From a virus: 64,000 bases of DNA. Shown in pieces: positions 9,701 through 42,188 of this stretch. The notes under the pieces were generated by a model. The model was not told the origin of the DNA. It did not search any database and saw only the letters and a list, made by a program, of their open reading frames with translations. Positions within the stretch are counted from its first letter, which is position 1, and the number at the start of each line of letters is the position of its first letter. Location of the stretch: positions 1 through 64,000 of IMG/VR virus record IMGVR_UViG_3300031718_000001; one strand, written 5' to 3'. Both the position numbers and the translations under genes were made by a program.

Positions 9701-11517
9701 AGCCGCTGTCCAGGGAGTACTCGTCCGGCCGGATGCTCGTGTCGGACATCCGCCGCCCAGGTGGAGGGCTGCTGTCCGAGCGGCCGTACACCCAGCGCCA
9801 GATGGCTGCCGATATCAGGCGCAACGGGGTCGAGCAGCCGCTCGCCATAGAGCACACCACCGCCTACGGCGGCAACCCGACTGTGATCAACGGGCTGCAC
9901 AGGCTGGACGGCGCCCAGCGCGCCGGGATCGCCGATGTGCCGGTGGTAGTCAAGCACCTGCCCGGCCGCCTGCCTCCGATGCTCAGCCGCGAGCCTGCTA
10001 CCGAGCAGGAGTTCAATGATGCCTATGACACCGAGCGCAGCGGCAGGTGGGCAGGCGAGCCTGGGCTGACCGCCGAGGCCGAGGTTCTGGAGCCGTCAAA
10101 GCGAATCCGCAGGCGAGCGGTCAGGCAGCGCGATGGAGACGAGCGCAGTTTCGGCGAGTACACCATGCGGTACCGGACGACTGACGAAGGCGAGCGCAGG
10201 CCCCGTCACGTTATCGAGGTATTCCACCCAGATAGCGATCAGCCAGTCGGCAAGCTGTCCTGGCGCGGCAGCACCCGGAAGGTCGAGAGTATCGATGTCA
10301 GCGGCCCGCATCAGCGTAAGGGCCTGGCTACGGCCATGTGGGGCTGGTCGCAGGAGATGTCCCCGAAGGCCAGGCACTCGGACGATCAGACCGATCAGGG
10401 CAAGGCATGGGTGAAGTCGCTGAGCGCGCATGGCGCTTCGTCCAGCACGCCGGCTACTGCTGCGCTGGAGCCCGGGGCCGAAGATTCCGGGATCTCCGTA
10501 GAGCACCATGAGACGTTTTCTGGCGGAGCGACTTACCCGAATCTGCACACGTTTACCGCGCGCCATCCGGACGGGACTGAGGCACAGCTCAGCTACATGC
10601 TGTCTAAGCGCAACGCCAGGGGCGTAGTTGATCGCGCCTACATCCCCAAGGACCACGCGCAGTCCCTGGGAGTTCCTCTCGTCCAGGCCGCCAGGCGGCT
10701 GCACCCGGGTGTCTTCGTGAGGGGGATGCCGGGCCTTGACGAGGACTGGGGTCAGCACCTGCCGTCCGTTACCTCGCTGCACCGGAACCTGACGATAAAG
10801 CTGGAGCCGGCCGACCGGGCTTACGTTCATGACGAGTCGGTGCCCAGGGCGCACCGGGCTAGGTTCCTGATGGACCTGATGGCCCGCAGCGGGCCGTCGA
10901 TGCACTGGGCCTCCCAGCGGGGGCAGGTCGCGGCCGAGGAGAGCTTCGGGGACCATGAATTCCGTTCGCCCGAGCACACGCAGATCTCGCTCAGCGCAAG
11001 CCCGCCGTCGGCCGAGCACGTGGAGACCGATCCGGAGCGGATCTCCCGGAACGGCGGCTACGCCTACCAGGCGCCTGACTGGGAAGTTCCGCTGAAAGAA
11101 GGTGCTCCGGTGAACGTCGGATCGATCCGCTGGCGTACCGGTACGGCCGGGTGGACGCAGCACCGGTTCAGGAGCGGCCACCAGTTCACTGCCGGAGTGC
11201 ATCCGGCCGAGCTAGCATCCGCCCCGGCGCGGACGGCGCAGCTAGCCGTTCGGCCGGCAGAGCAGATCAGCGTCATCTCTTCCTGGATTCCGGAGAACAA
11301 CGCCCAGGTCCAGGAGATGCTGGATGACTTCCCGTTGCTGTTCATCGCCCTGGCCGACGGGCTGACCTCGCTGGCCGCGCGGATAGACGGGCCGGTGGAC
11401 GAGCGGATCCCGGGCGCGCTCACCGCGATGGCCGCCGCGTGCCAGTCCGCCGCCGAAGACGCCCGGGACACAGCAGCACGCGCACACGAAACCGCAGGAG
11501 CATGGCATGCCTCTTGA
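6709..11517 (+). CDS. giant polyvalent protein 1 (3x ParB-like, zinc finger, 3x repeated ART-like domain, GNAT, second ART-like family, C-terminal helical domain)
   Basis: GGHHR, DGHHK and NGLHR ParB motifs; three YR..P...NTGDWV[ST]...E[WH]GY repeats; QRKGLAT GNAT motif A; SD GGAGG before ATG 6709, alternative start 6766. Confidence 0.8.
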   Translation: MQRQQSRSSNTGIIANLGPMADDFLMHFEAAGEPEQPWASIRTAGPDEYGKYVYPDYPAKTPATLARYFRKNEPDYYAAVRQHVEAHGVQEPVLLRYRDGGGHPLKKPVVMGGHHRAAAAWELGQSLPVGDYDNPEHYEASNTGFAQQWWRDHSALKEQYTDPRTRTAAVRPGRGEKACLCCKGSGSHNDGSECDQCDESGLLHSNEEQRYCPGQPQPRRRRWREPVTGSFEDAEPEARQARFDRAREWLERNTDAHSGTVDIPAHWGHHVDNQTIHHILDTHGWPRDESDREDHWSHIEPENFPVHQPIHQHQGFVWPGGVEDKMIGAMEDSRPWDDQPAKIVRHEGNSYLLDGHHKLAGARLLGQDSIEAHVFDTSKPETYPEHCRECQDEGVEMTRRPETAHTAARPGYQGQHHPLSWNAPMHATEDAPGFYGDPGRHTYGEGADETLDQFRKARGNPDHPVRIYRTMPLHAGGTINTGDWVSLGREAPLDLAEQRNYHDPDSLFTDPLPDHSRYHTYEATVPARHVRNGGDMMEWGYWGDPVQGEHSPGCCDQHTAGLDVSASAGDEPSSDYKDLLGHFEAADSSVYHGVHIPPGGPEDDPEWASPMHDVRNAMPRAYAGWDAESGRQLQASEGKPDHPVTVYRALPADRREFNTGDWVTTSGAYARQHGESNLRHAPWHVVRADVPARHLFNEGYMTEWGYQGPHIANPAVHYVGHDHDRREASLEAEASGDDYRLTHGAPGPQSGHLPLHHYTGEDPDSHVRVYRSAPAGTESINTGDWVSLNPAYAHRHGYGEARDGGNWPVYTAEVPQRHVHWDENDPDEHGYNGPALHHPDVHDEETGALHDWDDYHEAHPHGQEAWLGGSVHLPVAEHDFAHDEFEWEPDRADTVLSAAREQGALHNARWRDDIYPAREDAEGHAAQHLGAVPEGHRLTAFTVHRNDAGAIDDIGLHHYEPSDDPYVRRPYAFADLSEHNYSHPAVEEAGRGHQAAYEPLSREYSSGRMLVSDIRRPGGGLLSERPYTQRQMAADIRRNGVEQPLAIEHTTAYGGNPTVINGLHRLDGAQRAGIADVPVVVKHLPGRLPPMLSREPATEQEFNDAYDTERSGRWAGEPGLTAEAEVLEPSKRIRRRAVRQRDGDERSFGEYTMRYRTTDEGERRPRHVIEVFHPDSDQPVGKLSWRGSTRKVESIDVSGPHQRKGLATAMWGWSQEMSPKARHSDDQTDQGKAWVKSLSAHGASSSTPATAALEPGAEDSGISVEHHETFSGGATYPNLHTFTARHPDGTEAQLSYMLSKRNARGVVDRAYIPKDHAQSLGVPLVQAARRLHPGVFVRGMPGLDEDWGQHLPSVTSLHRNLTIKLEPADRAYVHDESVPRAHRARFLMDLMARSGPSMHWASQRGQVAAEESFGDHEFRSPEHTQISLSASPPSAEHVETDPERISRNGGYAYQAPDWEVPLKEGAPVNVGSIRWRTGTAGWTQHRFRSGHQFTAGVHPAELASAPARTAQLAVRPAEQISVISSWIPENNAQVQEMLDDFPLLFIALADGLTSLAARIDGPVDERIPGALTAMAAACQSAAEDARDTAARAHETAGAWHAS
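6730..6766 (+). promoter_or_regulatory. sigma70-like promoter with element, giving a leaderless start at ATG 6766
   Basis: TCGTCA-17-TAACCT-7nt-ATG. Confidence 0.6.
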
Positions 11518-14500
11518 CGAGCCCGGGTTCCCGAACCCGCATACAGGTCAGGATGAGTGGTTCCACGGCACCAGGGCTTACCCCGAGGACCTTTCGCAGC
11601 ACGGGTTCATGGATCCGATGGACATAGACCGCGGCGGCTACGAGGACCCGGACGCCGAGACGACGGGCCACTGGAATGCCCTGCTCGGCACGCATTTCAC
11701 CGCCGATCACAAGGTGGCCCACGAGTTCGCCACCGGAGAGCATGACTCGGGCGAGAACGATCCCGGCGGCGAGCCTTGGCGCCCTGCCTACCAGGGCGTC
11801 GTGCATGCCCGGCTGCACCTGCGGAACCCGAAGATCTATGACTCCGAGCACGACATGGATCACGAGGCCTACGAGCACGAGTTCGCGGCCGGGAACCACC
11901 CGAGCAATCACGTCCCGCTGCTCGACAGCGACGACGAAGACGACCGGTACGAAGCCGAGGACATGTGGCCGCACGCTGACCGGCTGCACCAGGAGTACGG
12001 CAACCGGGAGATCCCGCGCAGCGCCTACACCCCGTACGGGACGGACGGCGCCGGCCACCCAGAGCGCACCCTGTGGCTGAGCACTCACCCCGACCGGCAT
12101 GACATTGCCGAGCGGTTCCGGCAGCGGCTCCAGGCCCAGGGTCATGACGGCGTGGTCTACGGAAACGAATACGAGAAGAGCCAGCACGGCCGCAAGGCGG
12201 TCTCGGCAATCGCCTTCCACCCGGATCAGGTCGATATCCGGCAGCACCACCATGCCGAACACACGTGCATGGACCCGGAGGAGGCCGCAGCGCACCGCGG
12301 CCGGCTTCCCGGCCTCGGTCAGGAGGCGCTGCCGGGCCTCGATGACTACAGCATCTCGCGCCAGGCGCTAGTGCAGCACTTCGCCGCAGACGAGGAGTTC
12401 GACCACCCCGAGTTCGGCAACTTCGACGAGGAGTACGGCCTCTATCACCATCCGGACCACGGCTGGCACTGCCATGCCTGCGGTGACTTCCACGACGACG
12501 CGGAGACGGCCACCAGGCACCAGGACTCCTATACCGACTGGGGCCGGGTGCACCCGGGTCTGCCTGAGCACATGCACCGCGGGCTCGCGCTCCAGCTCCC
12601 GGCGGAGCTGCATGACGCGGTGCACGACGAGAGCGCCCCGGTTGAGCGGCGCGGCCGGATGCTCCTGGAACACCTCGGCGAGGACGGTCACGGCACCCAC
12701 TGGACGCCAGACGAGGAGCAGGCCGCTCATTATGCCGGGGTCAGCGCTCACCAGAACGCGGGCACCTGGCACGGCGGCAGCGGCCAGACCCACGTCATCC
12801 TGCACGCCCGCAGGCCCGCCATCGACGACATCGAGACCGACCCTGACACGCTGGCTGATCAGGACGTGATCAGCTTCGGCGACCATGATGACGCTGAGAT
12901 CCCGATCCGCCAGGGCGCCCCCGTGCACCTGACCGGGATCTCCTGGAAGCGCGCGGACGCGCCTGATACAGCATGGCAGCAGCACGACCTTCCGCAGACG
13001 CATCTGGGAGCACTGGAAATGACCGCAGGTGACGCAGATGAGGGCCTGACCTGGGACGAGATCGGCGAGCGGCACCCGGCGCTTTACGGTGACCCCGAGA
13101 TCCACGGCGAGGCGGCCGAGGGCGCTGACGGTGAGGGGATCGGCGATGTAGCCGGCCACCTGGCCTACGACCGGCCTGGGCACAACTACGCCGAGGGCAC
13201 CGGGGAAGAGCACCCGTCCTACACCGGCCTGCGGTTCTACCCGCGCACCATAGACCCCGCCCGGATCGACTACGCCCGCCACGGCAGCGATGACCAGCGT
13301 GTCCGCAACGCCCGCGCCGGCTACTCCGGCGCGCACCCGGACCACGTGCCCCCGCTGATCCTCGTGCACCGCCACGGCGTGTTCCAGGTCGCTGACGGGC
13401 ACCACCGCGGCGAGGGCGCCAGCCTGGCGTGGCGGCCGGTCGCCGCCTATGTCGCCTACTCACCGCACGAGCACGAGCCGTTCAGCGATGGCGAGCGCGG
13501 CCCGTTCCACGGCGCCGAGACCGAAGAGCAGCACGCCCTGGAGCGGGACACCGAGGGCGGCCGGATGAGCTACCCCGGTTTCCCGCACACAGCCGAGACC
13601 CCGCACCCGGTAACGGCGGCCCTGGTCAGCCACTTCGCCGAGCTGGAGCCGCCGAAGTACCACCCCGAGGCGCGGTGCCCGATGTGCGGGGGCCGCAACT
13701 ACGAGCGCGAGGAGCGGCCGGGATACATCCCGGAGGGGTCCAGGGCGCCGGCCTACTGCCGGAACTGCGGGGAGGCCTTCGACGCGAGCAGGTCCGGCCG
13801 CGAGATCGCCGAGGAGCGCGAGCGTGAGCACCGCGAGTGGGAGGAGGCCACCAGGAACCGCCGGTACAACGGCGAGGCCCTGTTCCACGGCACCAGGTCC
13901 GAGCTGCACCCCGGAGACCTGCTGACCCCTGACGAGGCCGAGCGCCACCGGGCGCACCCGGACGAGGACAGCCGGGGGTACATGCACGCCACGACCGTCG
14001 GCGAGGAGGCCTACGGCTGGGGCGAGCGCGCAAGCGGCGCCGAAACGCATGAGCGGATGACCGAGCTGGGCCGGGGCAGGCCCATGCCCGCCGGTCATTC
14101 GCAGGGCGAGGCCTACCGGCCGCGGGTCTACCAGGTTGAGCCGACCGGCCCGGTCGAGTACGACCCGAACGGCGAAGGCGAGGCATTCCGCAGCGCGCAT
14201 CCGCTGCGCGTCGTCCAGGAGGTACACCCTCTGGTCTGCTATCACGAGGATCATGAGGGCGAGTACCACTGGCCCGACCACGAGCACTACGAGTTCCTCA
14301 AGCAGCAGGAAGACGACGAGCACGAGGATGACGACGACGACTGGGGTCACGAAGCGGCTGCCATAGCGAGCGCGGACGAGCACGACGGCGATGGCTACAC
14401 CGTCTGCGACCAGGGCCACGAGCACTGGGGCCTGAACGGCGCCGCAGGCCTGCTGGTGCGCCACCACGACGACGACGGGGAGACCAGGTACCTGCTCCAG

Positions 14501-15598
14501 CACCGGTCGCCGTACGTCCAGCACGGCCGCACCTGGAGCACGCCAGGTGGCGCAATGGGCAGCGGCGAGACGCCCGAGCATGCCGCTCTGCGCGAGGCCC
14601 GCGAGGAGATGGGTGAGCTGCCCGGTGACCTGGAGCACCACCACACGGTCACCGATGACCACGGCGGATGGTCCTACCACACCGTGGTGATGGACTCGCC
14701 GACCAGGTTCCGCCCCAGCGGAAGCGGCGAGACCGACTGGGAGAGCGAGGGCAGCGGCTGGTTCACCCCTGGCGAGATCCAGGGCCTGCCTCTGCATCCC
14801 GGGTTCCGGTCGAGCTGGGACAAGGTGCAGCACTCAGGATCGCTCCGGGTCGTGGCCCTGGACGACGTGCCCGCCTTCACCCACCGCTACCTCTCGGCCC
14901 AGCCAGACGGCGGGTACGCCGAGCGCGAGGAGCTGGTCCAGGGGCCGTTCTACCACGGCAGCCGGTCGAAGCGGCTGGGCGAGGGCGCCGAGCTGACTCC
15001 CGGCCGCAAGACCAACGGCTGGGGCGACGAGGGATCGAAGTCGCAATGGGTGCACTTCACGACTGACCTGGGCGGGGCAGCCGAGTACGCGCGCCAGGCA
15101 GGCGGACACGTCTATGAGGTCGAGCCGCACGGTGACGTGCAGATGGGCTACAGCGGCAGCGATTGGAAGTCGAAGGGGGTGCTGCGCGTCCGCCGCGTGG
15201 TCCCGCCGGAGGAGATCGCCAGGCACCAGGCCCGGACAGGCCAGCTCATCGTCGCCGCGAACGTCTCCGATCATGTCCTGACCCGGGGTGCCCCGATCCC
15301 TGCCGCGGCTGACGTGCATGCGGCTATCGGCGCCTGGACGCCGCAGAACGCCCGCGAGGTGCATGAGTGCCTGGATGAGTTCCCGCTGCTGTTCCGGGCA
15401 CTGCACGAGGGCCTGGCCGAACTGGCGCACGAACTCGAAGGCACACCGGTCAGCGTCCATCTCATCGCCATCGTGCGCAGGATGGCAGCGTGCTGCCAGG
15501 GCGCGGCCGAGGACGCCACGGAGGTTGCCGGACGCCCGCTGGATGGCGCAGAAGGTATGTGGGAAGGATCGCGAGCGTCAGTCGGCCCAAAAGCCTGA
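11507..15598 (+). CDS. giant polyvalent protein 2 (ART-PolyVal-like, ART-like, ParB-like, zinc ribbon, 2x Arr-like ART, NUDIX, C-terminal helical domain)
   Basis: WFHGT..GTHFT..LRNP..GHDGV; ADGHHR; LFHGT..VYQVEPTG and FYHGS..VYEVEP Arr-like motifs; NUDIX box GGAMGSGETPEHAALREAREE; SD AGGAG. Confidence 0.8.
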   Translation: MPLDEPGFPNPHTGQDEWFHGTRAYPEDLSQHGFMDPMDIDRGGYEDPDAETTGHWNALLGTHFTADHKVAHEFATGEHDSGENDPGGEPWRPAYQGVVHARLHLRNPKIYDSEHDMDHEAYEHEFAAGNHPSNHVPLLDSDDEDDRYEAEDMWPHADRLHQEYGNREIPRSAYTPYGTDGAGHPERTLWLSTHPDRHDIAERFRQRLQAQGHDGVVYGNEYEKSQHGRKAVSAIAFHPDQVDIRQHHHAEHTCMDPEEAAAHRGRLPGLGQEALPGLDDYSISRQALVQHFAADEEFDHPEFGNFDEEYGLYHHPDHGWHCHACGDFHDDAETATRHQDSYTDWGRVHPGLPEHMHRGLALQLPAELHDAVHDESAPVERRGRMLLEHLGEDGHGTHWTPDEEQAAHYAGVSAHQNAGTWHGGSGQTHVILHARRPAIDDIETDPDTLADQDVISFGDHDDAEIPIRQGAPVHLTGISWKRADAPDTAWQQHDLPQTHLGALEMTAGDADEGLTWDEIGERHPALYGDPEIHGEAAEGADGEGIGDVAGHLAYDRPGHNYAEGTGEEHPSYTGLRFYPRTIDPARIDYARHGSDDQRVRNARAGYSGAHPDHVPPLILVHRHGVFQVADGHHRGEGASLAWRPVAAYVAYSPHEHEPFSDGERGPFHGAETEEQHALERDTEGGRMSYPGFPHTAETPHPVTAALVSHFAELEPPKYHPEARCPMCGGRNYEREERPGYIPEGSRAPAYCRNCGEAFDASRSGREIAEEREREHREWEEATRNRRYNGEALFHGTRSELHPGDLLTPDEAERHRAHPDEDSRGYMHATTVGEEAYGWGERASGAETHERMTELGRGRPMPAGHSQGEAYRPRVYQVEPTGPVEYDPNGEGEAFRSAHPLRVVQEVHPLVCYHEDHEGEYHWPDHEHYEFLKQQEDDEHEDDDDDWGHEAAAIASADEHDGDGYTVCDQGHEHWGLNGAAGLLVRHHDDDGETRYLLQHRSPYVQHGRTWSTPGGAMGSGETPEHAALREAREEMGELPGDLEHHHTVTDDHGGWSYHTVVMDSPTRFRPSGSGETDWESEGSGWFTPGEIQGLPLHPGFRSSWDKVQHSGSLRVVALDDVPAFTHRYLSAQPDGGYAEREELVQGPFYHGSRSKRLGEGAELTPGRKTNGWGDEGSKSQWVHFTTDLGGAAEYARQAGGHVYEVEPHGDVQMGYSGSDWKSKGVLRVRRVVPPEEIARHQARTGQLIVAANVSDHVLTRGAPIPAAADVHAAIGAWTPQNAREVHECLDEFPLLFRALHEGLAELAHELEGTPVSVHLIAIVRRMAACCQGAAEDATEVAGRPLDGAEGMWEGSRASVGPKA
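15586..15592 (+). other. candidate -1 frameshift slippery heptamer C CCA AAA
   Basis: X XXY YYZ in the zero frame, one codon before the stop; the -1 frame stays open for 934 codons. Confidence 0.7.
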
Positions 15599-18396
15599 GC
15601 CGGACGGCAGCCGGTGACTGGGATCCGTACGAGGAGACCTGGGACGAGCACCGGGCCGGCCAGGAACCGGATGAGCCGCTGCCTTCCGAGACGGACGAGT
15701 ACTGGAGCCCGCCGCACCTCTACCACGGCACAGCCGAGGACCTGAAGCCAGGCGATTCAGTAGAGCCCGGCCATGGCCCGAACTTCGGCGGCGGCCAGTC
15801 CATGGACCCGCGGCACACTCATGCCTATGCGACCCCTCATATCCGTTCTGCCTGGGAGTATGCAGAGAACGCAGCCGCCAGGCGAGGCGGTCGTCCCCGG
15901 GTCTACGAGGTAGGCCGCACGGAAGATATGCTGCCCGACCCGGAGAGCGGCCACGCCGTCGGCGGCCCCCAGATGATCCCCCACCCGGGCTGGCGCAGCA
16001 AGACCGGCTTCCCCGTGCTCCGGGAACTGGAACCGCACGAGCTGGGCGATTACACGGCCGCTGCGCACTGGGCACCGTCGTCGGGCATTTTCGCGCCGAC
16101 TACCGGGCTCGACCGCCGGCTGTTCGACGGCCGCGAGCATCTGCGCCCGGTCGCCCGCGGGGCCATCATGGAGAAGCTCGACCGCTGCCTCCGCACCGAC
16201 ACCGGCCTGACCGGATCGGACTGGCAGGACTGGCTGAAGGTGTACCTGGCCGGCGGGTCAGCGAGCGAGTGGGCCGGCGACCGGCCGAACGAGGCGGCCC
16301 AGGACCTGGACGTGCTGCTCGGCGTGGACTATGCCGGGGCACGCAGGAACACCCCCGGGTTCCGGGAGATGACCGACGCCGAGATCGACGCCGCGCTCAA
16401 CACGGGCCTGCGGAGGTGCTTCAACACCGACGGCTGGAGCCCGGACGGCTTCGAGGGCACCTGGAACCTGACCGGCTACGTCAACCCGCAGGCCTGGGAC
16501 ATCCGCTCGATCAAGCCCTATGCCGCCTGGGATCTCTCGGACTCACGCTGGGCTGTCCGGCCGCCGCACCTGCCAGATCATGCCCTGGCCGACTTCAACC
16601 CGGCCGTGCTGGCCGAGGCCAGGGCCATCGCCTCCCAGGCCCGCGCCATCCTGCGGCTGCCCGAGGCGCTCCGGATCCGCGAGGCCCGCGCGCTCTGGGA
16701 CCGCATCCACGACTCCCGGCGCTCAGCGTTCTCGGAGGAGGGCGAGGGCTGGACTGACCCGGGCAACGTCATCGAGAAGTGGCTGGCCTACGCCCCCGGT
16801 AACCTCCTGGGCCAGATCCGGGAGCTGGCGCTAGCGAAGACGGCGGGGCTAGTCCAGCCGCGGCCGGAGGATTTCGCTCACGGTGTCTATAACAATGACA
16901 CCAGCGATTTCCGGCTGCACGGCGACGATTACATCTTGCATCACAGCCATCCGAAGGTGATCACGGCCTACGTCCGCGGGCCGGAGCTGGTGGCTCCAGA
17001 CCAGCCGAACTACACTCGCGGCCACCAGCGCCCTTACGAGGTCGGGTACTTGAGCTGGCTCGGCGGTGATACCCCGAAGATCTACAAGACCTTTGTGAAG
17101 GAGGATCACCGCCGTAAGGGCGTGGCCTCCGCGATGCTCGGCTTCGCCCGGGAGATCGAGCCCAGCCTCCAGCACTCGCACGCCCTGACTGAGGACGGTC
17201 ACGCCTGGGCCGAGAAAACGGCTGCCCACGTACCCGGAGATGAGCCGGTCGTCCGGACGCACATGGATCTCGGCTGGAGCCCGGACGAGTGGGCTGATGC
17301 CCGGCGTGACCCGTGGCACGCTTCAGCTAAGCTCGCTCAGGCCGAAGTCCGGCACTCCCACCCGAAGCTCCGCATGCCGCTTCCGCGCGGCGAGGAGGGC
17401 GACGCCATGGTGGGTCACCTGCTGCGCTACGCCGGGTACCAGGGGCCTACCGAGGGCGCGTTCGCCGCCAGGCACCCGGACCCGTCGAAGATGACCTCGA
17501 ACCCGTCCTGGCTGAACGGCAAGCCGGGCGTGGCCCTCCACCCGGACAGGTGGGACTACGGCACGGCCGCGCACGAAGCCGCCCACCATGTCGTGATGTA
17601 CAACCACGCAGTCGCGCGGAATGAGCCGCAGACCGACGAGCAGGTGCACGGCCCGGAGTGGGCTCGCGCCTACGGCCAGGCGCTCAACAAGATCTCGAAG
17701 CACGCCGGGGACGACTTCGTGTACCACCACGGCCGGTTCCGCTCGATGATCGACGAGGGACTCCAGTATGTCCGGCCGGGCGATCTCGATGACGCCGAGA
17801 AGCGCCTGCCGCCCCGCCGCTGGGTCGATGACGAGGTGTACCCCGCTCCAACGCGGCTGGCTTCAGCGTTGGAACCGCGGGCTGGCGCTGCAACCCGCGT
17901 TGGAGTCACCGGCTACGACGGCCTGACGAAACGCTCGGGCATGATCTACCTCGACCTGCCCGAGGGCGCCGTCCGCCGCCTGCCGGGCGGCGTGGACGAC
18001 CACCACATCACGGTTGTCTACCTCGGGAAGAACGTGACCGACGAGGCCTTCGAGGAGGCGTGCCGCCGGGCACGGCTGGCCGCGGGAAAGACCGGCCCGC
18101 TGCACGGATTCCTGAACGGGACCGAGACCTTCGAGCCCAGCGATTCCAGCGGGGAGAAGGTGCCGGTGTTCGTGCCGGCCTACATCCCGGGCATCGGAGC
18201 GCTGCGCCGGGAACTGGAGGACCTGTCGGGAAGTGAGCACCGGCAGTACCGCCCGCACGTTACGCTGGCCTATCTTGAGCCAGAGGATGATCTTCCCGCC
18301 CCGCATCCGAAGGTGGATGTGAGCTTCGGGCGGCTGCACGTAAAGCGCGGGGACCAGGTGGTAAGTTTCCCGCTGGGCCATTCGCAGTGGGGGTGA
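15592..18396 (+). CDS. giant polyvalent protein 3 (Arr-like ART, Pol-beta-like nucleotidyltransferase, GNAT, zincin peptidase, 2H phosphoesterase); probably made as a -1 frameshift extension of protein 2
   Basis: LYHGT..PRVYEV; GGS..DLDV; HRRKGVAS; HEAAH..HGPEW; HIT and HVT motifs; no convincing start codon of its own. Confidence 0.75.
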   Translation, partial: SLSRTAAGDWDPYEETWDEHRAGQEPDEPLPSETDEYWSPPHLYHGTAEDLKPGDSVEPGHGPNFGGGQSMDPRHTHAYATPHIRSAWEYAENAAARRGGRPRVYEVGRTEDMLPDPESGHAVGGPQMIPHPGWRSKTGFPVLRELEPHELGDYTAAAHWAPSSGIFAPTTGLDRRLFDGREHLRPVARGAIMEKLDRCLRTDTGLTGSDWQDWLKVYLAGGSASEWAGDRPNEAAQDLDVLLGVDYAGARRNTPGFREMTDAEIDAALNTGLRRCFNTDGWSPDGFEGTWNLTGYVNPQAWDIRSIKPYAAWDLSDSRWAVRPPHLPDHALADFNPAVLAEARAIASQARAILRLPEALRIREARALWDRIHDSRRSAFSEEGEGWTDPGNVIEKWLAYAPGNLLGQIRELALAKTAGLVQPRPEDFAHGVYNNDTSDFRLHGDDYILHHSHPKVITAYVRGPELVAPDQPNYTRGHQRPYEVGYLSWLGGDTPKIYKTFVKEDHRRKGVASAMLGFAREIEPSLQHSHALTEDGHAWAEKTAAHVPGDEPVVRTHMDLGWSPDEWADARRDPWHASAKLAQAEVRHSHPKLRMPLPRGEEGDAMVGHLLRYAGYQGPTEGAFAARHPDPSKMTSNPSWLNGKPGVALHPDRWDYGTAAHEAAHHVVMYNHAVARNEPQTDEQVHGPEWARAYGQALNKISKHAGDDFVYHHGRFRSMIDEGLQYVRPGDLDDAEKRLPPRRWVDDEVYPAPTRLASALEPRAGAATRVGVTGYDGLTKRSGMIYLDLPEGAVRRLPGGVDDHHITVVYLGKNVTDEAFEEACRRARLAAGKTGPLHGFLNGTETFEPSDSSGEKVPVFVPAYIPGIGALRRELEDLSGSEHRQYRPHVTLAYLEPEDDLPAPHPKVDVSFGRLHVKRGDQVVSFPLGHSQWG

Positions 18397-21740: not shown

Positions 21741-22426
21741 TGCTGGCGGCACGCCAGCTCCTGGACTCCGGTGCCCGCGTGGTGCTGACCCGGCGTCAGC
21801 TCAGGGACCTGATCGGCCTGGCAGAGAAGCAGGGCCTGGAGCCCGTCAGGAAGCCCGACACGGGCCGTCAGCAGTGGTACGGCCGACTCCATGGCTGGAG
21901 CGCTGAACGTGTCCGTGCGGGGCTCTCAGCGGCCGAGGTGATAGGCCTGTGGCTCGACTTCCTCGACGCGGGCCGGATACCCCCGCTGCGCGTCCGTGAC
22001 CTGACCGCGATCGTCGATGTGATCAGCCGCCGTGACCCGTCCGTGATCGTTACCACCGCGTTACCCGGCTTCTCGCGTGACCTGGCGCCCGGCCGCAGAA
22101 GGGACAGGAACGCCCTGAGATGCGGAGGAACCGATGACAGATCGCAGCGCCCTGGTAGCGGCCGTCCAGACCGCCGGCAGCGGGGCAGCGCTCGCCCAGG
22201 CCGTCGCGACGCTGGATGCCCACGACCGCCACCGCGCCGCAGCGCTCAATGCCCAGCGCGACCTCGACCTGGGCGTGCAGATCGTCGCCGAGCGGCTCAC
22301 CCCCGTCCCGCTGCACGAGCATCACACCGCGGCCACCGACTGGCTGGGCGACTACCAGGAACCCGCGGACGGCACCTACCGCACCGCGATGATCGCGGAG
22401 GCATCCGTCTGGTACCGCGGCCTTGA
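21566..22426 (+). CDS. hypothetical protein with N-terminal C..C..H..C zinc site (3' overlap suspicious)
   Basis: TTG with SD GGAGG; coding-like to about 22050. Confidence 0.45.
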   Translation: MSTTTVWEAGLTCDAEGCGGEFTLGEEIIYWYGRKLHQKCASADAASRREASGEDGDVMLAARQLLDSGARVVLTRRQLRDLIGLAEKQGLEPVRKPDTGRQQWYGRLHGWSAERVRAGLSAAEVIGLWLDFLDAGRIPPLRVRDLTAIVDVISRRDPSVIVTTALPGFSRDLAPGRRRDRNALRCGGTDDRSQRPGSGRPDRRQRGSARPGRRDAGCPRPPPRRSAQCPARPRPGRADRRRAAHPRPAARASHRGHRLAGRLPGTRGRHLPHRDDRGGIRLVPRP

Positions 22427-23747
22427 CCCGGCCGTCCGCGGGGATGCCCAGGAGCTGGCCGAGCAGGCCCGCGGCCGGGCGCGCACCGCTGCGTCCGCCT
22501 TCGGCGCCCAGGCCGTCGCAGCCCAGCATGAGTTCCTCCAGGTGGTCAGTTACCTCCGCATGGCCGAAGGTGCCAGCGGGCTGCCGCAGATCGACCAGAC
22601 CATCGACCCGAACAACCAGCCGAGCGCCACGCCGTACCCGACCGAGGTGTTCCCGACCTTCGGCGAGGAACAGGACCCGTATAACGGCGTCGAGACCAGC
22701 AACCACCAGTCGGGTGCGGCCAGCGCCGGCGCTCCGCTGATCCAGCAGGTCGAGCAGCAGAACGCCTCGGGTTCCGGCTTCGGGACCGGCCCGGAGAAGC
22801 CTGACGAGCACAGCCTCGGCTTCGACACGAGCAACTCCTACGCCGAAGTGCCGCTCGGGCCGCCCGGCCAGATCCCCACGGCTCCCGCCGCGACGGACCA
22901 GATGGCCTCCAGCCACCCGAACCCGGTGGCGGGCACCATCCAGGATGCCGGGAGCGACCGGCGCCCCACCGTGGCGCACATCGAGGGCTACAGCCTGCCG
23001 GACCCGTTCGGCTACCGGTGGCCGATGACCGGGGAGGTGCACCACCCGTTCCACGAGCGGTGCGCCAGCGCGCACTGGCCGGATGAGTCCTGCGGCGACC
23101 GCACGCACACAGCGTCCATGGCGGTCGGGTACATGATGAACCTGGATCAGGCCCGGCGCCAGGCTGCCTGCGAGGCCGTCGGCGTGCGCGAGGGAGTCCG
23201 GATCGTCGCTTCAACCGGCTCGCTGGCCGAGCTGGGCGGCTATCACAACCGGTTCGCCGCCGCCTGGAACGGCTCGGGCCGGACAGCCGACGACACTGCG
23301 GTGCTGCACGGGTTCATGGCCGTGGTGCGCCCGGTACTGGCCGAGGTAGGCCAGCGGGAAGCCAAGTCGTGTGACGAGTGCGCCTCGGGCAACTGCCAGA
23401 ACTGCAAGGGGCACGGCTGCACGTGCAGCAAGTGCACCACCCAGTTCGGCCCGCGGCCGGGGAACTCCAAGACCGCGGCAGGCGGCCTCGCGGCCGGAGG
23501 CGTTACCGAGCACGAGCGCGAGACCGCCACGCATCACCTGCCCGGCACTGACGGCAAGTTCCCGGTCAACGGCCCGGCCGATGTGGAGAACGCCAAGCAC
23601 GACATCGGCCGGACTAATGAGCCGCACGCAAAGGTGGTCCGGTACATCAACGAGATGGCGAAGGAGTACCACGTCGCGCCAGTCGGCGGCAGCCAGAAGG
23701 CCGCAGCCCTGGGGAGGGAGCCAAATTTTACGGTCACGGCGCTCTGA
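22134..23747 (+). CDS. putative head/internal virion protein, short form
   Basis: SD GGAGG; Pro/Gln/Ala-rich, [KRH]TA linkers, Cys cluster, DUF6582-like KFPV..NA segment. Confidence 0.65.
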   Translation: MTDRSALVAAVQTAGSGAALAQAVATLDAHDRHRAAALNAQRDLDLGVQIVAERLTPVPLHEHHTAATDWLGDYQEPADGTYRTAMIAEASVWYRGLDPAVRGDAQELAEQARGRARTAASAFGAQAVAAQHEFLQVVSYLRMAEGASGLPQIDQTIDPNNQPSATPYPTEVFPTFGEEQDPYNGVETSNHQSGAASAGAPLIQQVEQQNASGSGFGTGPEKPDEHSLGFDTSNSYAEVPLGPPGQIPTAPAATDQMASSHPNPVAGTIQDAGSDRRPTVAHIEGYSLPDPFGYRWPMTGEVHHPFHERCASAHWPDESCGDRTHTASMAVGYMMNLDQARRQAACEAVGVREGVRIVASTGSLAELGGYHNRFAAAWNGSGRTADDTAVLHGFMAVVRPVLAEVGQREAKSCDECASGNCQNCKGHGCTCSKCTTQFGPRPGNSKTAAGGLAAGGVTEHERETATHHLPGTDGKFPVNGPADVENAKHDIGRTNEPHAKVVRYINEMAKEYHVAPVGGSQKAAALGREPNFTVTAL

Positions 23748-29163: not shown

Positions 29164-29199
29164 CGCGCGCTCCTCGCTGTCTGGTTCCTTGCTAAGACG

Positions 29200-29228
29200 A
29201 CAATAGCAAGAAACCCTGTATCGTGCAA
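29200..29228 (-). promoter_or_regulatory. promoter for the MTase operon
   Basis: TTGCAC-17-TATTGT with element. Confidence 0.7.
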
Positions 29229-29235
29229 ACAAGGG

Positions 29236-29276
29236 CGGCCCGCAGCGGAGGCGGGTGTCTCCTGCTGCGGGCCGCG
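29236..29276. terminator. strong hairpin, probable terminator upstream of a promoter
   Basis: GCGGCCCGCAG...CTGCGGGCCGC inverted repeat. Confidence 0.55.
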
Positions 29277-29288
29277 GCTTGAGGGTAG

Positions 29289-29867
29289 CTAGATGATCGG
29301 GTTGATGGACCAGCCGGCCCGGATCCAGCGGCCGGGGTTCCACCTGTGCCGCAGCTCGTGCCGCAGGATCTCAGCGGCCAGGGCCTGGTCGTTGGCGTCG
29401 GAGAACGGCCGGTAGAAGATGTAGCCGTCCCTGGCCACCCAGTAGTTGGACTTGACCCGGTTGCACCGCGCGCACAGGATCGTCAGGTTCCACAGCGCGC
29501 TGAGCCCGCCCCGGCTCCACGGCTTGACGTGATCGATCTGGAGATGCTCGGGCGATCCGCAGTAGCAGCAGCGGTACCGGTCGGCAGCCATGACCGCGCG
29601 CTTGAGCCAGGCGTGCCAGCCCGGCCGGCTCTTGCCGTGCCGCCACCAGATCCTGGTCCTGTCGGGGATGAGCAGCAGGGGCAGCGAGTGAATGGAGACC
29701 AGCGCCCCCGGCGTCATCACGCCCAGGACCAGGGCCGGCAGGAAGAACAGGCCGAAGCCCACGCCTGCGGCCGGCTCGTGCAGGTCGATCCACCCCCATA
29801 CGGCCGCCAGGGGCAGCACGGAGGACGACAGTGGCATGACCGGGCTGTTCCGGCGGCGGGCGCTCAT
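29289..29867 (-). CDS. HNH endonuclease with N-terminal hydrophobic (TM) segments
   Basis: CCYCG..LQIDHVKPWSRGG..NL..LC..CN..K. Confidence 0.85.
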   Translation of the reverse strand: MSARRRNSPVMPLSSSVLPLAAVWGWIDLHEPAAGVGFGLFFLPALVLGVMTPGALVSIHSLPLLLIPDRTRIWWRHGKSRPGWHAWLKRAVMAADRYRCCYCGSPEHLQIDHVKPWSRGGLSALWNLTILCARCNRVKSNYWVARDGYIFYRPFSDANDQALAAEILRHELRHRWNPGRWIRAGWSINPII

Positions 29868-32991: not shown

Positions 32992-33963
32992 TCAGCAGTT
33001 CCAGGACTTGGCCACGGCAACCTCGCCGCGGGCAGTGAGGGCTTCGGCCTCGGCGATGATGTCGCGCATCGTGAAGTCGCGGCCGAAGGTGTGACCCATC
33101 TTCTCTTCGGCCTCGGCCCGCTTGACGGCGCCATCGGGGTCGAGCTGCGCGGCCCGGACCAGGGCCTTGCGGCCGGCCAGGACGCAGAACCGGCAGGACA
33201 GCCTGGGCATCCCGGCGTCGTACACCCAGTGATGCCGGACCCCGCTGGCCTTGATGTCGGCCCACACCTGGTGCTCGGTGAGGCCGTGAATCGGCAGCCA
33301 GTTGTCGCAGTCCTTAACGGTCTCGTTGGTGACGCGCTTGTTCTTCTCGAAGGAGACGAGCTTCGCCCTGGCAGGGCTCTCCTGGGCGCGCATCCCCATG
33401 CAGTTCAGGATGCGTACGCGGCGGACGCGGGCCTTGCAACCTTTGGGAAGCATCGCCTTCCACGCGCTGCGCAGCTCGTCGCACAGCATGGTGATCACGG
33501 TGCCGATCGGGTCGCGCTTCATGTCAGAAGTGCAGAAGCGGTTTTCGAGGTTTGGCCACTTGCCGTGGTTGATGATGTGCTGGAGGAGCGTGATAGGTGC
33601 GTCGTTGTTCTCGCCCTTCTGCACCTTGATGAACCGCACGCCATAGTGCGCGGCGTGCTCCCGGGCCAGCTCCTCGGTGCCCGCCCACTCGTCCTCGGCA
33701 CCTAGGTCGGCGAAGACGCAGACGATCTTGCGACGGTCTAGTCCAAGGATGTCCACCAGGCGCATGAACAGCCGGAGCATCGTCTGGGAATCCTTGCCGC
33801 CGGAAATGTTCAGCACGTACAGGTCGTAGGTGGGCAGCATCAGCAGGTCGAGCCCGGCTAGCGTGGCCGCCGCGAAGATGCTCTCTATCTCAGCGATGAG
33901 TTCGAGGTCAATCGCCTGCGCGATGATCTTGTCGGTGATCTTCGGGTAAGTGGTGCTGCTCAC
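32992..33963 (-). CDS. PAPS-reductase-like adenine nucleotide alpha hydrolase
   Basis: NISGGKDS PP-loop, RFCTSDMK, GMRAQESPAR, WLPI, RLSCRFC. Confidence 0.85.
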   Translation of the reverse strand: MSSTTYPKITDKIIAQAIDLELIAEIESIFAAATLAGLDLLMLPTYDLYVLNISGGKDSQTMLRLFMRLVDILGLDRRKIVCVFADLGAEDEWAGTEELAREHAAHYGVRFIKVQKGENNDAPITLLQHIINHGKWPNLENRFCTSDMKRDPIGTVITMLCDELRSAWKAMLPKGCKARVRRVRILNCMGMRAQESPARAKLVSFEKNKRVTNETVKDCDNWLPIHGLTEHQVWADIKASGVRHHWVYDAGMPRLSCRFCVLAGRKALVRAAQLDPDGAVKRAEAEEKMGHTFGRDFTMRDIIAEAEALTARGEVAVAKSWNC

Positions 33964-33998
33964 TCGCTGCCTCCTGGCTGTCGTTCCTTGCAAGACCT

Positions 33999-34468: not shown

Positions 34469-35397
34469 TCAGTCCTGGACCCAGCCCTGGTCACGGACGT
34501 AGCCCGCCAGCTCGCGCCAGTTCTCGCTGACGGCCGTGAGCACGGCCCGGTCGCCTTCCATCTCGTCGTGGTCGATGTCCCACTGGCCGCGGTCGAGGTG
34601 CTCCAGGATCTTTCCCTCGATCAGCGCGTCCAGGGTGGGCGGGTCCAGGGCGTCCAGCTCCCAGGACAGGTCGCCGTACTCGGCGATGTAGTCGTTCGCC
34701 CGGCTGTCGGTGACCTTGGCGTAGTTCGGGGGCGGGTTGTACGCCTCCACCTGGTCCATGTTCAGCGCGATGCGGTCGATCTCGACACTCGACCCGAAGG
34801 TGTACAGCCGGTCGCCGATGTCGCGGGTCATGTCGATCCCGCTGGGGTCGTGGTCGCCCAGGTGGATGATGAGGCACTTCTTGCCGGTGCGCTCCTGCTT
34901 GCGCAGCCGCATGGCGGCTCGCCACATCTCGGACTGGCTGACGTAGCCGCGGCACGAGAAGTACGGCACCAGCCAGCGGTCGGCCGGGCGGGACACCACG
35001 TCGGCCAGGCCTCCTTCTCGACCCACACCTCGACATACCACGCCTGGTTGTTCCACAGATGCGTGCGGTACTGCGCGGCGACCGCATCGACGATGGACTC
35101 CGGATCGTCCCACATGGCCAGTTGGGCGAGGTTGCGGGTGCGGTCCTCCAGGTGGTTCCAGTCGATCAGGCCAGCCAGCCGGGCATCATTGACGATCGAG
35201 CCCAGGCGCTTGTAGCTCTGGATGTTGTTGGTCAGCCAGTCGCGGCTGACGAACTGGTAGTAGAGCTGCCGCAGGGTGAGGTTGTATCCCTGGGCCGCGT
35301 AGTCCTCGCAGATCTGGGCGGCGCGCTCGATTACCTCCATCGAGCCGGCCGAGAACCTGGTGTCTGCGTACTTGATCTTCGGCATGATGGTCTCCAT
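34469..35397 (-). pseudogene. Topo VI-A/DUF2399-like Toprim protein, interrupted by a 1-nt deletion near 35008
   Basis: LTLRQLYYQ..VEVWVEKEA in one frame continues as LADVV..RGY.S..GDHDPSG..WELDAL in another. Confidence 0.75.
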
Positions 35398-35402: not shown

Positions 35403-36197
35403 TCAGTCGAGAGAAGCCACTGTCTCGGCACGCCAGTTAAGGGCGTACTCCAGGCAGTTGTTGCAGTGCTGATGGGTGTGTCCCTCGATCGGGGGCTCAT
35501 AGCGCGCGTCGAACGACCAGGCGGCCGAGTCCGCGCTCACGAGCATGCGGCCGTACATCGGCAGGCCGGTGCGCTTCACGCCGAATCCGTGCAGCCGCAG
35601 GTGCGACAGCTCGGTGACGATCCGCAGGATGCTTGTCGTGTTCGAGCGCCGGCAGATGCTGCCCAGGCCGACCACGGGGAACGTGGTGAGGTCGAAGCCG
35701 GCGTCCTTGTACATCTCCTCGTGCCGCAGGTACTCATAGCCTGCCCAGCCCTGGAGCACGGGGATGACCGGGCACGGCCCGTCGCCGACCTGCGGCCACA
35801 GCTCCAGGGCCTGGACGTAATTCTCGATGGTGAGGTGCTGGTGGACGTACGTGCTGAACCCGGTGGCCCGCCTGATGTTCTCCTCGCACATGTAGTCCAT
35901 GGGGGAAGCCCATTTGAGCTGGCCGATCTGGTCCTGGTATCTCGCCACCCGCTCCAGGTACTCCAGCACGGTGAACCGCCAGCCAGGCGGCGAGCCGAAG
36001 GTATGCAGGCGCTGCTCGTCCGTGTGCTTGAGCTGCATGAAGCCGCCCGAGTCGAGCGCCCACGGGCCGAGAGCCCTGGGCAGCGTAGCGCGCCCGGACA
36101 GGTTCTGGTCAGCCACGAACAGGGGCACGTCCGTCCTCGCGAGGAAGAACGGCTTGTGCGTGGTGAGCATGAACTCGCAGGGCGCGAAGCTGCCCAT
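35403..36197 (-). CDS. queuine tRNA-ribosyltransferase-like (TGT/DpdA-like) protein
   Basis: WALDSGGF, PMDYMCE, PVLQG, VGLGSICRR, LHGFGVK, SADSAAWS; C-terminal CNNC. Confidence 0.8.
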   Translation of the reverse strand: MGSFAPCEFMLTTHKPFFLARTDVPLFVADQNLSGRATLPRALGPWALDSGGFMQLKHTDEQRLHTFGSPPGWRFTVLEYLERVARYQDQIGQLKWASPMDYMCEENIRRATGFSTYVHQHLTIENYVQALELWPQVGDGPCPVIPVLQGWAGYEYLRHEEMYKDAGFDLTTFPVVGLGSICRRSNTTSILRIVTELSHLRLHGFGVKRTGLPMYGRMLVSADSAAWSFDARYEPPIEGHTHQHCNNCLEYALNWRAETVASLD

Positions 36198-36232
36198 CTG
36201 CCCTCCAGTGCTATCGGTTCCTTGCAATGCCT

Positions 36233-36300: not shown

Positions 36301-37494
36301 ATGACAATCGCCACGCCGCTGAGCACGTCATCCCGCTGGATCGTGGACAGGAACGGCAACCGGGTCAAGCTGGCCGGGGCCAACTGGGCCGGAGCCCACG
36401 AGGACCTGATGGTGCCCGGCGGCCTCGACCGCCTGAACCGGTCGGCTATCGCCGGGCAGCTTGCGGCGTGGGGCTTCAACTCGGTCAGGTTCCCCTTCGC
36501 CGGCTCGACCGTCCAGGACACGGCACCCGTGATCCCCGCGGCCGTGGCCGCGAACCCGGACCTCGTTGGCATGACGCCATGGCAGGTCTACCAGGCCTGC
36601 GTAGCTTCGCTGACGGCCGCGGGCATCATGGTGATACCGAACTTCCACCTTCTCTACCGGGGGTGGTGCTGCTCACTTTCCGATACCAATGGCCTGTGGT
36701 GGAACAGCAACTGGTCATATTCGACGTTCCTGTCGATATGGCAGCAGGTGGCCACGGCGTTCGCGGGCAACCCGCTGGTCATCGGATTCGATATCAAGAA
36801 CGAGCCGCGGCAGGCGACGATCAACGGCCAGGTCCTCAACCCGAGCTGGGGCGACGGCAACACCGAGACCGACTTCCGCTGGCTCTACCAGCAGGCCGGC
36901 GATGCGATCCTGAAGATCGACCCGGCCGCGCTGATCTTCTGCGAGGGCATCAACAGCTCGGGCAACCTGACCGGAGTGGCCAGCTACCCGGTCCAGCTCA
37001 GCTCGCCCGGCCACGTTGTCTACAGCATCCATGACTACCCGCAAGGATGGCCCGCCACTGAGACCCAGGCCGCGTACATCGCGAGCCAGCACAGTAACGC
37101 CGGGTACATCACGAACACGGGAGAGCCGTACACCAGCCCGCTATGGGTCGGCGAGTTCGGGGTGGCGAACGACTCTATGGCCGCCATCGGCGCCGGGCCG
37201 GTGAGCTACGGCGACGGCCTGGGAGCCGGCCCGGTCAGCCAGTCCTACGGTAACTGGTGGTCGAACTTCCTCGCCTGGGCCTACGAGCGGGCTGACCTCG
37301 ACTGGTGCTGCTGGCACCTGAGCGGGACGCATGTCCAGGGTACGACCCCCTCGACCAACCAGCTCCAGTACAACCTGGGGGACAGGTGCTGGGACGGGCT
37401 CTATGCCCAGGACTGGAGCGGCCCCGCTAATCCCGCGGTGATCGAGGCGCTCCAGGCGATCATGGCGCCGATCTCGGGGCCGGGGGTCAGCTAG
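36301..37494 (+). CDS. glycoside hydrolase family 5 (cellulase superfamily)
   Basis: GANWAG, GFNSVRFPF, catalytic NEP, YSIHDY, nucleophile VGEFG, WCCW. Confidence 0.9.
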   Translation: MTIATPLSTSSRWIVDRNGNRVKLAGANWAGAHEDLMVPGGLDRLNRSAIAGQLAAWGFNSVRFPFAGSTVQDTAPVIPAAVAANPDLVGMTPWQVYQACVASLTAAGIMVIPNFHLLYRGWCCSLSDTNGLWWNSNWSYSTFLSIWQQVATAFAGNPLVIGFDIKNEPRQATINGQVLNPSWGDGNTETDFRWLYQQAGDAILKIDPAALIFCEGINSSGNLTGVASYPVQLSSPGHVVYSIHDYPQGWPATETQAAYIASQHSNAGYITNTGEPYTSPLWVGEFGVANDSMAAIGAGPVSYGDGLGAGPVSQSYGNWWSNFLAWAYERADLDWCCWHLSGTHVQGTTPSTNQLQYNLGDRCWDGLYAQDWSGPANPAVIEALQAIMAPISGPGVS

Positions 37495-37499
37495 GAGCT

Positions 37500-37526: not shown

Positions 37527-37534
37527 CTCCCGGC

Positions 37535-40745: not shown

Positions 40746-41203
40746 CGCTGCTCGATCTCCTCGACCAGGACCTGCACGCGGAAGCGCTTGACGATATCGC
40801 CATGCCGTTCCTTGCGGATGCCCAGGTAGAGCGTGTGGTTCGGGTCGTCGGAACGCTCCAGCACGATGTAGTGCTGGCGAGGCATGTGGCTGTCATCCGG
40901 CTCAGACCAGCCAGTGCCCCACTGCTGGATCGCGCTCACGGCCTCATCGCGCACGATGTCGCGCAGGTAGTCCGCAGCCTCGTCCAGGTGAGGGATCAGC
41001 TCGGCCGAGCGTTCCTCGCGTCCGCTCTGCCGGGCTGCGCGTAGCGCGGCCAGGACATCGGCCGCGGTCTCCGGCTTGATCTCGTCCGGCAGCCACAGCG
41101 CATCACCGAGCATTTCGCGGCCGTCAGCCGTCTGGGTGTACTCGGCGATCACGCGCCCCCGCTGGCCTGTTGAAGGGGCGCGCAGGATGTAGTCGCGCAT
41201 CAC
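40742..41203 (-). CDS. hypothetical protein
   Basis: overlapping start/stop, codon bias. Confidence 0.55.
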   Translation of the reverse strand: MMRDYILRAPSTGQRGRVIAEYTQTADGREMLGDALWLPDEIKPETAADVLAALRAARQSGREERSAELIPHLDEAADYLRDIVRDEAVSAIQQWGTGWSEPDDSHMPRQHYIVLERSDDPNHTLYLGIRKERHGDIVKRFRVQVLVEEIEQR

Positions 41204-41496
41204 TCACCGTCCAGGAAGAACTTGTAGTGGTGGTGGAACTGCTCGGCCAGATCCTGGGCAGCGCCCTGGGCCGTGTTCATGGCCTCTTCGACGTGACCGA
41301 TCTCCTCGCCGACTGTCTCTTCGAGATCGCCGCTCTCATCTGCATCCGCGAGCGCGCCGCCGATTGCGGAGCCGAGCTTGTCGAGCACATTGGGCAGCGC
41401 CTTGATGAAAGCCCACAGCTCCTTGCCGTCGGCGGCTTTCCAGCCATCCAGGTGGGCGCCGATTGCCTCTTCGATCGCTGCTGCCGGGTTTGCCAT
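41200..41496 (-). CDS. 98-aa helical protein (shared helical-domain family)
   Basis: SD AAGGAG; paralogue of 41883-42188 (NPA..GKELW..P..L..F[FW]LxGE). Confidence 0.7.
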   Translation of the reverse strand: MANPAAAIEEAIGAHLDGWKAADGKELWAFIKALPNVLDKLGSAIGGALADADESGDLEETVGEEIGHVEEAMNTAQGAAQDLAEQFHHHYKFFLDGE

Positions 41497-41507
41497 GGGG
41501 GTGCTCC

Positions 41508-41740
41508 TTACTCGCTGGAGTCCAGGAAGAACCTGTACTCCTGGTGGTAGTCGGATTCGGCTTCCTGGGCTGCGCGCGATGCGGCCAGGAGGCTGCTGCG
41601 GATATCGTCGATATGCTCGTTACCGTCCTGGCCTGCCGCGCCGAATACCGCAGAGACAGCCTCGTCCAGGCCGTCAATCAGCACGGGCAGCTCCAGCAGG
41701 AATTCGCCACTACCTCTCTCCGTCCAGGCAGGCTGCTGCT
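41508..41740 (-). pseudogene. third helical-family paralogue lacking a clear start
   Basis: translates ..GEFLLELPVLIDGLDEAV..AAQEAESDYHQEYRFFLDSSE*; not in the ORF track. Confidence 0.55.
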
Positions 41741-41882: not shown

Positions 41883-42188
41883 TCATCCCTCCTCTCCGTT
41901 CAGCCAGAAGTCGTTAGCGCGCTTGAAGTCGTCGCGGGCCTGCTCGGCGGCCTCCTTGGCCTGCTCCACCAGGCGCTCCATCGTGCCCAGCGCCTCGCTC
42001 AGGCTCTGCATCTCACCGGGTTTGCCTTCGAGGCGCAGTTCCAGCGCCATGAACGTGCTGGACAGGCCGGCCAGGATCTCAGGGAAGTCCTGAAGGAGTA
42101 TCCACAGCTCCTTGCCGGTCTCCGGGTCGTACGGGCGGAGCCCGTTGTTGATCAGCTCGATGATCTGCCCTGCTGGGTTCTCTGCCAT
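41883..42188 (-). CDS. 101-aa helical protein (shared helical-domain family)
   Basis: SD AAGGA; YDPETGKELW..LQDFP. Confidence 0.7.
   Translation of the reverse strand: MAENPAGQIIELINNGLRPYDPETGKELWILLQDFPEILAGLSSTFMALELRLEGKPGEMQSLSEALGTMERLVEQAKEAAEQARDDFKRANDFWLNGEEG

Follow-up and report, generated by a model that had tools for sequence, protein, structure and literature searches.

The stretch of DNA analysed here (the window) comprises the first 64,000 nucleotides of the IMG/VR virus record IMGVR_UViG_3300031718_000001, a phage genome in one contig of 165,085 bp with a 127-bp terminal repeat. Sequence matches of its portal and terminase place the phage among the E3/Skog/Bxz1-like actinophage myoviruses. 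Three giant frames lie downstream of the terminase gene, and the C-termini of the first two are copies of a helical domain that recurs in small genes of the same window and, outside it, in a gene set for DNA transfer (the transfer kit). We describe this domain as one family with its native place beside TraB/FtsK genes, a tail-less form of which ends the giants in one clade of kit-bearing phages. The features around the terminase, together with the portal, are as follows.

4200 to 6323, plus strand: terminase large subunit, the anchor of the giant-protein locus (phrog_2, E 6e-10)
6661 to 11517, plus strand: giant 1, a polyvalent protein of 1618 residues with ParB-like modules and three phrog_2579 repeats; its C-terminus is the helical domain
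11254 to 11517, plus strand: helical domain of giant 1 (residues 1532 to 1618), tail-less
11507 to 15598, plus strand: giant 2, of 1363 residues, with two Arr-like ADP-ribosyltransferase modules and NUDIX; its C-terminus is the helical domain
15302 to 15598, plus strand: helical domain of giant 2 (residues 1266 to 1363), tail-less, with three predicted helices and a mean predicted local distance difference test (pLDDT) score of 82
15559 to 18396, plus strand: giant 3 frame, with Arr-like, GNAT-like and 2H phosphoesterase modules and a part that looks nucleotidyltransferase-like by eye
61479 to 63785, plus strand: portal protein (phrog_2833, E 8e-139; 36 to 39% identity to E3, Skog and cluster C)

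Each of the three giants joins many unrelated conflict enzymes in one chain, with matches to Arr-like, NUDIX, ParB, GNAT and 2H modules. In this they resemble the polyvalent proteins of phages and conjugative elements, which are multidomain, carry ADP-ribosyltransferase, NUDIX, GNAT, ParB and 2H modules, lie near head genes and are thought to enter the new host cell by delivery (PMC5512222). The text of that study gives no match for WXG or coiled, and we found in it neither a TraB-linked helical handle nor a frameshifted junction. Their position behind the terminase suggests that the giants may enter the virion or travel with transferred DNA. Linkers of the TA type are about four times denser in the giants and head proteins than elsewhere. 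A separate observation concerns an L-V-x-H-F-like motif, present four times in the 3,949 residues of the giants (6661 to 18396) versus twice in 36,616 residues elsewhere; it also occurs in the giants of relatives, often adjoining TA-type linkers, and is a candidate packaging or cleavage signal.

The six copies of the domain in the window and a seventh beyond it (genome positions 146745 to 147089) are one unannotated three-helix family. An earlier note, written from the letters of this DNA, had claimed homology between the two giant C-termini, 41883 to 42188, 41200 to 41496, the 41508 frame and the C-terminal half of 26945 to 27724, and significant pairwise and profile scores bear this out. Searches against the genome cut into 2,781 six-frame pieces gave pairwise E values of 2e-15 (giant 1 with giant 2), 8e-5 (giant 1 with 41883), 1.5e-7 (41883 with 41200) and 9e-5 (41200 with the 41508 frame). 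We also scanned 13,156 six-frame pieces with an outside profile of 109 family members, free of truncated giant copies and of window sequences, the members themselves having been gathered by a profile that did contain giants. It recovered giant 2 (E 1.8e-10), giant 1 (4.5e-10), 41883 (5e-10), 41200 (6e-13) and 26945 (1e-20), and a second profile recovered the 41508 remnant at 6e-11, the best unrelated piece scoring 0.52. Profile-profile comparison by HHalign linked the giant and tailed types at 99.0% (E 6e-18), the giant and short types at 97.8% and the short and tailed types at 99.7%. A search of 1.84 billion representatives yielded 273 members at E of 0.001 or less. Pfam and PHROGs assign no family to the domain; tblastn of 41883 against cultured phages returned noise only (E of at least 0.3), scans with single proteins gave no matches, whether the query was the giant domain or a part of giant 3, and a search of PDB sequences with the domain found mainly designed coiled coils. 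The linker motif that had been noted ahead of the domain in both giants (RTAQL and RTGQL) did not hold up, as its two instances are out of register (17 versus 33 residues ahead of the [SA]W motif) and the motif is not conserved, reading RAAQL in a near-identical relative and HTGKL in another.

Three types can be told apart within the family. The tailed type has about 114 residues and the end motif H..EL..R...PR..E..W, which is present in 64 to 66 of 69 tailed members and in 26945 and is not found in the giant copies of the window or in the short type. The giant type is without the final 25 or so residues (it covers profile positions of about 8 to 85 of 113), and the tail is missing in 14 of 15 giant copies. 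The short type, of 93 to 101 residues with an aromatic end (F..FW/FL), occurs in variable tandem arrays. A quick midpoint-rooted tree (115 columns) unites the 14 tail-less giant copies (Shimodaira-Hasegawa-like approximate likelihood ratio test, 98) and gives the short type a branch of its own (89); it does not identify the donor. The small-gene copies in the window are these.

26945 to 27724, minus strand: protein of 259 residues with a full tailed domain in its C-terminal half (about 26963 to 27289; E 1e-20) and a degenerate second copy in its N-terminal part (E 3e-5)
41200 to 41496, minus strand: free short-type paralogue of 98 residues with the F..FW/FL tail
41508 to 41702, minus strand: 3' remnant of a short-type paralogue of 93 residues
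41710 to 41880, minus strand: frame of 56 codons, which in the relative L062 extends into another paralogue and is truncated here by the same deletion
41883 to 42188, minus strand: free short-type paralogue of 101 residues

The startless frame at 41508 to 41740 was considered as an intact gene and rejected. In the close relative L062 the gene is intact, encodes 93 residues and belongs to a tandem array of five paralogues; by comparison the window lacks about 660 bp, a deletion that took the 5' part of the 41508 gene and most of two neighbouring paralogues. Short-type genes were not found in four close phages whose giants have the domain, and the genes at 41 to 42 kb, which had been put forward as the small partners of the giants, are therefore unlikely to be the main ones. 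Another contig of 164 kb also holds a short-type array (L066:6001-7777), two genes of which encode tandem double-domain proteins of about 200 residues.

The native setting of the family is seen in actinomycete transfer kits. In pSQ10, pADI95-16c, pFQ12, a Streptomycetaceae plasmid and the phages Galactica and P1312, the gene immediately upstream of an FtsK/TraB-like gene encodes the tailed type. In the plasmid-phage pZL12/ZL12 the protein pZL12.72, with two copies of the domain (E 9e-15), adjoins the FtsK gene pZL12.71, which the TraB of the present phage matches at 21% identity (E 8e-17). The link that the earlier note drew from the PRxxExxWD tail of 26945 to Streptomyces transfer regions proved sound: this tail does mark plasmid transfer-region proteins. 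The phage has a kit of its own outside the window.

141672 to 148117 of the genome (L001:2673-9118): transfer kit, with a TraB/FtsK-like gene, a Spd-like membrane gene, an Arg-rich frame ending in the tailed domain, and an ArdC-like gene

The seventh copy lies two genes from TraB (141672 to 143639), and none of the six window copies adjoins a TraB/FtsK gene; TraB and the Spd-like gene are also present in four relatives (G001 to G004). TraB is a pump for double-stranded DNA that acts with Spd proteins (PMC12857230). The kit copy shares with pZL12.72 and the genes of pSQ10, pFQ12, Galactica and P1312 the domain, its place at the end of a long protein and the FtsK-type neighbour. While proteins of the pZL12.72 type carry the full PRxxExxWD tail and no fusion to an enzyme polyprotein, the giant copies are tail-less and fused. 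We looked at the setting of the domain in five phages and six named records, and in each it closes a long Arg-rich frame. Ahead of it, a start codon with a purine-rich site is present in every one of the five phages and in most of the records. These internal start signals imply a free short form as well, so the native design is probably a long protein ending in the domain together with a free partner.

Comparison of predicted structures gives insight into what the domain is and is not. AlphaFold models of the tailed protein (pLDDT 90) and of the giant 2 domain share one layout of three helices. The two-helix hairpin first suspected from the sequence thus gives way, in the models, to a fold of three helices with an extra first helix. 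The central turn bears a Pro-Val motif, and a conserved [WF]xP lies after the extra helix. The family does share with WXG100 proteins their size (free forms of 93 to 117 residues) and an all-helical model. It may also share their antiparallel helical-bundle dimers, as the long helices are antiparallel in the one predicted dimer. The motifs do not support the suggested WXG100-like membership. WxG occurs in two of 69 tailed members, in none of 14 giants and in none of 26 of the short type, and is missing at the turn; the C-terminal YxxxD/E is found in none of the tailed members or giants and in three of the 26. PF06013 (WXG100) is not among the families listed for the 69 members at E of 0.05 or less (25 of 26 families shown), and EspC is matched by three of the 69 (best E 0.001). 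Foldseek against solved ESAT-6 folds gave E of at least 1.7 for EsxA, with generic hairpins and none outstanding; the best VIA Z scores (8.1 to 8.2) were to unrelated hairpins, and template modelling (TM) scores of 0.52 to 0.54 to ESAT-6 clusters of the atlas indicate a weak likeness. The fold searches, taken on these models, neither show nor exclude kinship to ESAT-6 folds; by its sequence motifs the domain is not a WXG100 member. The FtsK-family ATPase beside the family genes is TraB-like in the records viewed, unlike the EccC/EssC-type ATPase of WXG100/type VII partners, from which the family also differs in its extra N-terminal helix and its other conserved tail. A type VII substrate of reverse order, TslA, offers an analogy only: the enzyme comes first and the helical domain last, this domain stacks with small helical partners (TlaA1/A2), and an FtsK-family ATPase is near (PMC10730906).

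We modelled one complex from alignments of our own, that of the giant 2 domain with the 114-residue protein of the kit. It scored 0.80, while the best of three controls scored 0.00; 58 of 80 solved complexes attain this mark, as do two of 110 mismatched pairs. Between runs, at least 89% of the contacts coincide, and the pLDDT of the partner is at least 76. In the predicted complex the long helices of the two chains lie antiparallel, with helix 1 of one chain against helix 2 of the other, an interface formed by helices that are present in the giant form. On this model a giant copy probably pairs with some member of the family. The pairing idea of the earlier note thus gains support from the native long and probable free forms and from a dimer model that passes; the specific pair, being one of paralogues, is not singled out.

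The junction between giants 2 and 3 directly follows the domain and holds these signals.

15551 to 15561, plus strand: GAAGG and, in the -1 frame, GTG (15559), from which giant 3 might start independently
15586 to 15592, plus strand: in-frame heptamer C CCA AAA, a -1 slippery site one codon ahead of the giant 2 stop
15599 to 15615, plus strand: short hairpin 6 nt past the heptamer (z -0.1, not above shuffles in the window)

Giant 2 ends GGC CCA AAA GCC TGA, and a -1 shift at the heptamer would yield a giant 2-3 fusion of 2296 residues, the -1 frame being open for 934 codons in the window. Of ten junctions, eight have an in-frame heptamer one codon ahead of the stop (four CCCAAAA, three CCCAAAT and one GGGAAAA), and G001 and L103 have none; the genome-wide background is eight such sites in 34,146 codon positions. 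The junctions share ancestry, their flanks have diverged, and the heptamer has been kept through a CCC-to-GGG change. AT-rich gene starts were considered as the cause of the AAA codon and rejected, as AAA makes up only four of 37 early Lys codons. The downstream hairpin has z of -3.5 in G002 and G003, -1.8 in L064 and about 0 in the window and three others. It is quite likely, on this conservation, that a -1 frameshift directly after the domain extends part of giant 2 into giant 3. The end of giant 1 has no slippery site, and giant 2 begins in the +1 frame with its own AGGAG. Programmed -1 frameshifts are known from phage tail-chaperone and capsid genes, e.g. lambda G/GT, which share the X XXY YYZ heptamer shortly ahead of a stop and the pair of short and extended products. 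Unlike these, the giant junction unites two enzyme polyproteins and has a possible separate downstream start conserved beside it. We found no report in the literature on this heptamer junction.

This start weighs against a reading by frameshift only, as the downstream frame has a conserved candidate start of its own: GAAG(G) followed 3 to 4 nt on by GTG or ATG in the -1 frame is present in all ten junctions, against 41% expected by codon context. Because the signal is conserved, though its spacing is short, giant 3 may also be made alone from GTG 15559. In L063, a single contig in which a sequence error is possible, giants 2 and 3 are fused in frame, the domain is full and tailed and the heptamer is still in phase; a -1 shift there would stop two codons later and give the short product, the reverse of the window. 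Elsewhere in the window a second heptamer (A AAT TTT, 23723 to 23729) lies near the end of 22134 to 23747; it is less supported as a frameshift site because it is not at the matching place in four relatives.

The distribution of the domain among related phages is narrow. All six near genomes (terminase 73 to 81% identical) combine the giant copy with the kit copy and TraB, while ten distant records, three of them incomplete, have neither giant nor kit copy, and TraB is absent in the five checked. Most of the distant loci still have giants after the terminase, which argues that the domain is an add-on of one clade and disfavours the general packaging tag that had also been suggested. The cargo ahead of the domain ranges from about 1300 to 2500 residues and the domain remains last. 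Where the giant is split into two genes, in the window phage and L064, both gene ends carry it, and giant 3 has none of its own. A single phage has a full tailed copy at the same giant junction (P0133), and the copies in L014 and L075 are eroded. Fourteen giant copies, at 27 to 57% identity, conserve the pattern of helices, two prolines and several positions of the core. That every giant chain needs one copy was considered and rejected, with G001, L103 and L075 as exceptions.

Our preferred explanation, to which we give a probability of about 45%, is that a dimer-forming helical module was taken from a TraB-adjacent kit gene and reused as a pairing handle on post-terminase polyvalent proteins. 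An ancestor of this clade of large soil phages would have acquired the helical protein of an actinomycete transfer kit and fixed a tail-less copy to the ends of its giants. The frameshift would tie the downstream enzymes of giant 3 to the handle and set the amount of downstream cargo attached, with some giant 3 perhaps produced free. The most likely partner would be the tailed 114-residue protein of the phage's own kit, providing the conserved tail that the giant lacks; the short-type genes at 41 to 42 kb would be a variable side line whose products might compete at the surface used for this pairing. More speculatively, the enzyme cargo may dock at the TraB/Spd membrane complex and accompany phage DNA within or between hyphae; that giants are routed through TraB at all is something we only infer. 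Several points weigh against this explanation. The chains of the modelled complex are paralogues, and the pass may show only a dimerising family; among colicin pairs, close cousins also passed in 10 of 12. The co-occurrence with the kit comes from one clade, a single event, and is weak evidence for a functional link. The first giant frame of L075 has no domain, and in G001 and L103 the downstream giant is left without a handle because there is no heptamer. The giants lie within a morphogenesis block, where TA-type linkers, if protease sites, would sever the domain from its cargo, and we found no report of protein export by TraB, which is known for pumping DNA (PMC12857230).

The position behind the terminase can also be read through the head. 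Giant 1, giant 2 and the 2-3 fusion might dimerise through their own copies and enter the prohead together, with the kit as donor only. The TA-type linkers common to giants and head proteins, the copy on each split giant, the loss of the tail in 14 of 15 giant copies and an interface made by helices that the giant form keeps would all fit such self-association. It is nonetheless on the unlikely side: packaging does not generally depend on the domain, given the distant giants without it, and free giant 3 from GTG 15559 would carry none. Cleavage would open another route, in which the domain is cut free in head maturation, injected, and acts without a tail as a decoy for, or regulator of, the tailed partners that resident plasmids, integrative elements or rival phages bring, with the short-type arrays doing likewise from early genes. 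Tail loss in giant and short types alike, the tandem arrays of diverging paralogues, which look like conflict genes, and a TA-like motif after the frameshift in the window agree with it. We hold it unlikely, as there is no conserved cleavage-like motif immediately ahead of the domain and a plain cargo module need not remain terminal beside a frameshift.

Two further readings bear less weight against the preferred pairing handle. If the domain were a passenger of the recombination that brought the junction signals, selection would act on those RNA signals only; the terminal EGxW motif is indeed partly RNA signal (GAAGG with the start codon), and the eroded copies of L014 and L075 would suit. 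The helix pattern, prolines and core positions kept in 14 diverged copies, the confident structure model and the duplication onto a second giant make this very improbable. A true WXG100/ESX substrate tag using host type VII secretion would draw on the size and helical hairpin, the weak ESAT-6 likeness, the EspC matches and the TslA precedent (PMC10730906), and is hardly credible beside the near-absence of WxG and YxxxD/E, the missing Pfam match and a linked ATPase that is TraB-like.

Some other features of these genomes stand apart from the domain. In G001 an endonuclease-VII-like frame (L010:18026-18643) overlaps the second giant on the same strand. The window holds a glycoside hydrolase gene on the plus strand (36301 to 37494) within a block of minus-strand genes, assigned to a cellulase family in a close relative, and an apparent single gene spread over two frames (34469 to 35397, from 34828 to 35397 and 34469 to 35113), which may reflect a frameshift or an assembly error. 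By appearance, the genes at 27721 to 29343, 32992 to 33993, 35403 to 36227 and 42661 to 43869 are of DNA-modification type: a cytosine methyltransferase, two resembling phosphoadenosine phosphosulfate reductase and one DpdA-like (PF23859 in a close relative).

The arrangement is real, conserved and apparently undescribed, its parts being of known kinds. In the literature searched, which leaves most subscription journals outside, we found no description of the domain or of its polyvalent fusion, and nothing that links TraB with WXG100 or treats pSQ10. One shared domain links two modules that otherwise look unrelated, the polyvalent enzymes of a virion block and a transfer kit of plasmid type. 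The analysis also provides a first structural reading of an unannotated TraB neighbour, with three predicted helices, a probable dimer, a conserved tail and, it appears, long and short forms from one gene. Transfer of pZL12 requires genes adjoining tra, and the family is directly testable in that plasmid without phage culture. A bolder version, which we consider decidedly unlikely, is that TraB kits hold a minimal protein route of type VII kind, in which the tailed protein would be the signal-bearing partner read by TraB/Spd, and the tail-less giants would send anti-defence enzymes with naked phage DNA to neighbouring hyphal compartments, the frameshift setting the attached cargo. If true, TraB complexes would handle proteins besides DNA, and conjugation of the Streptomyces type would have more of its logic in common with type VII secretion than has been assumed.

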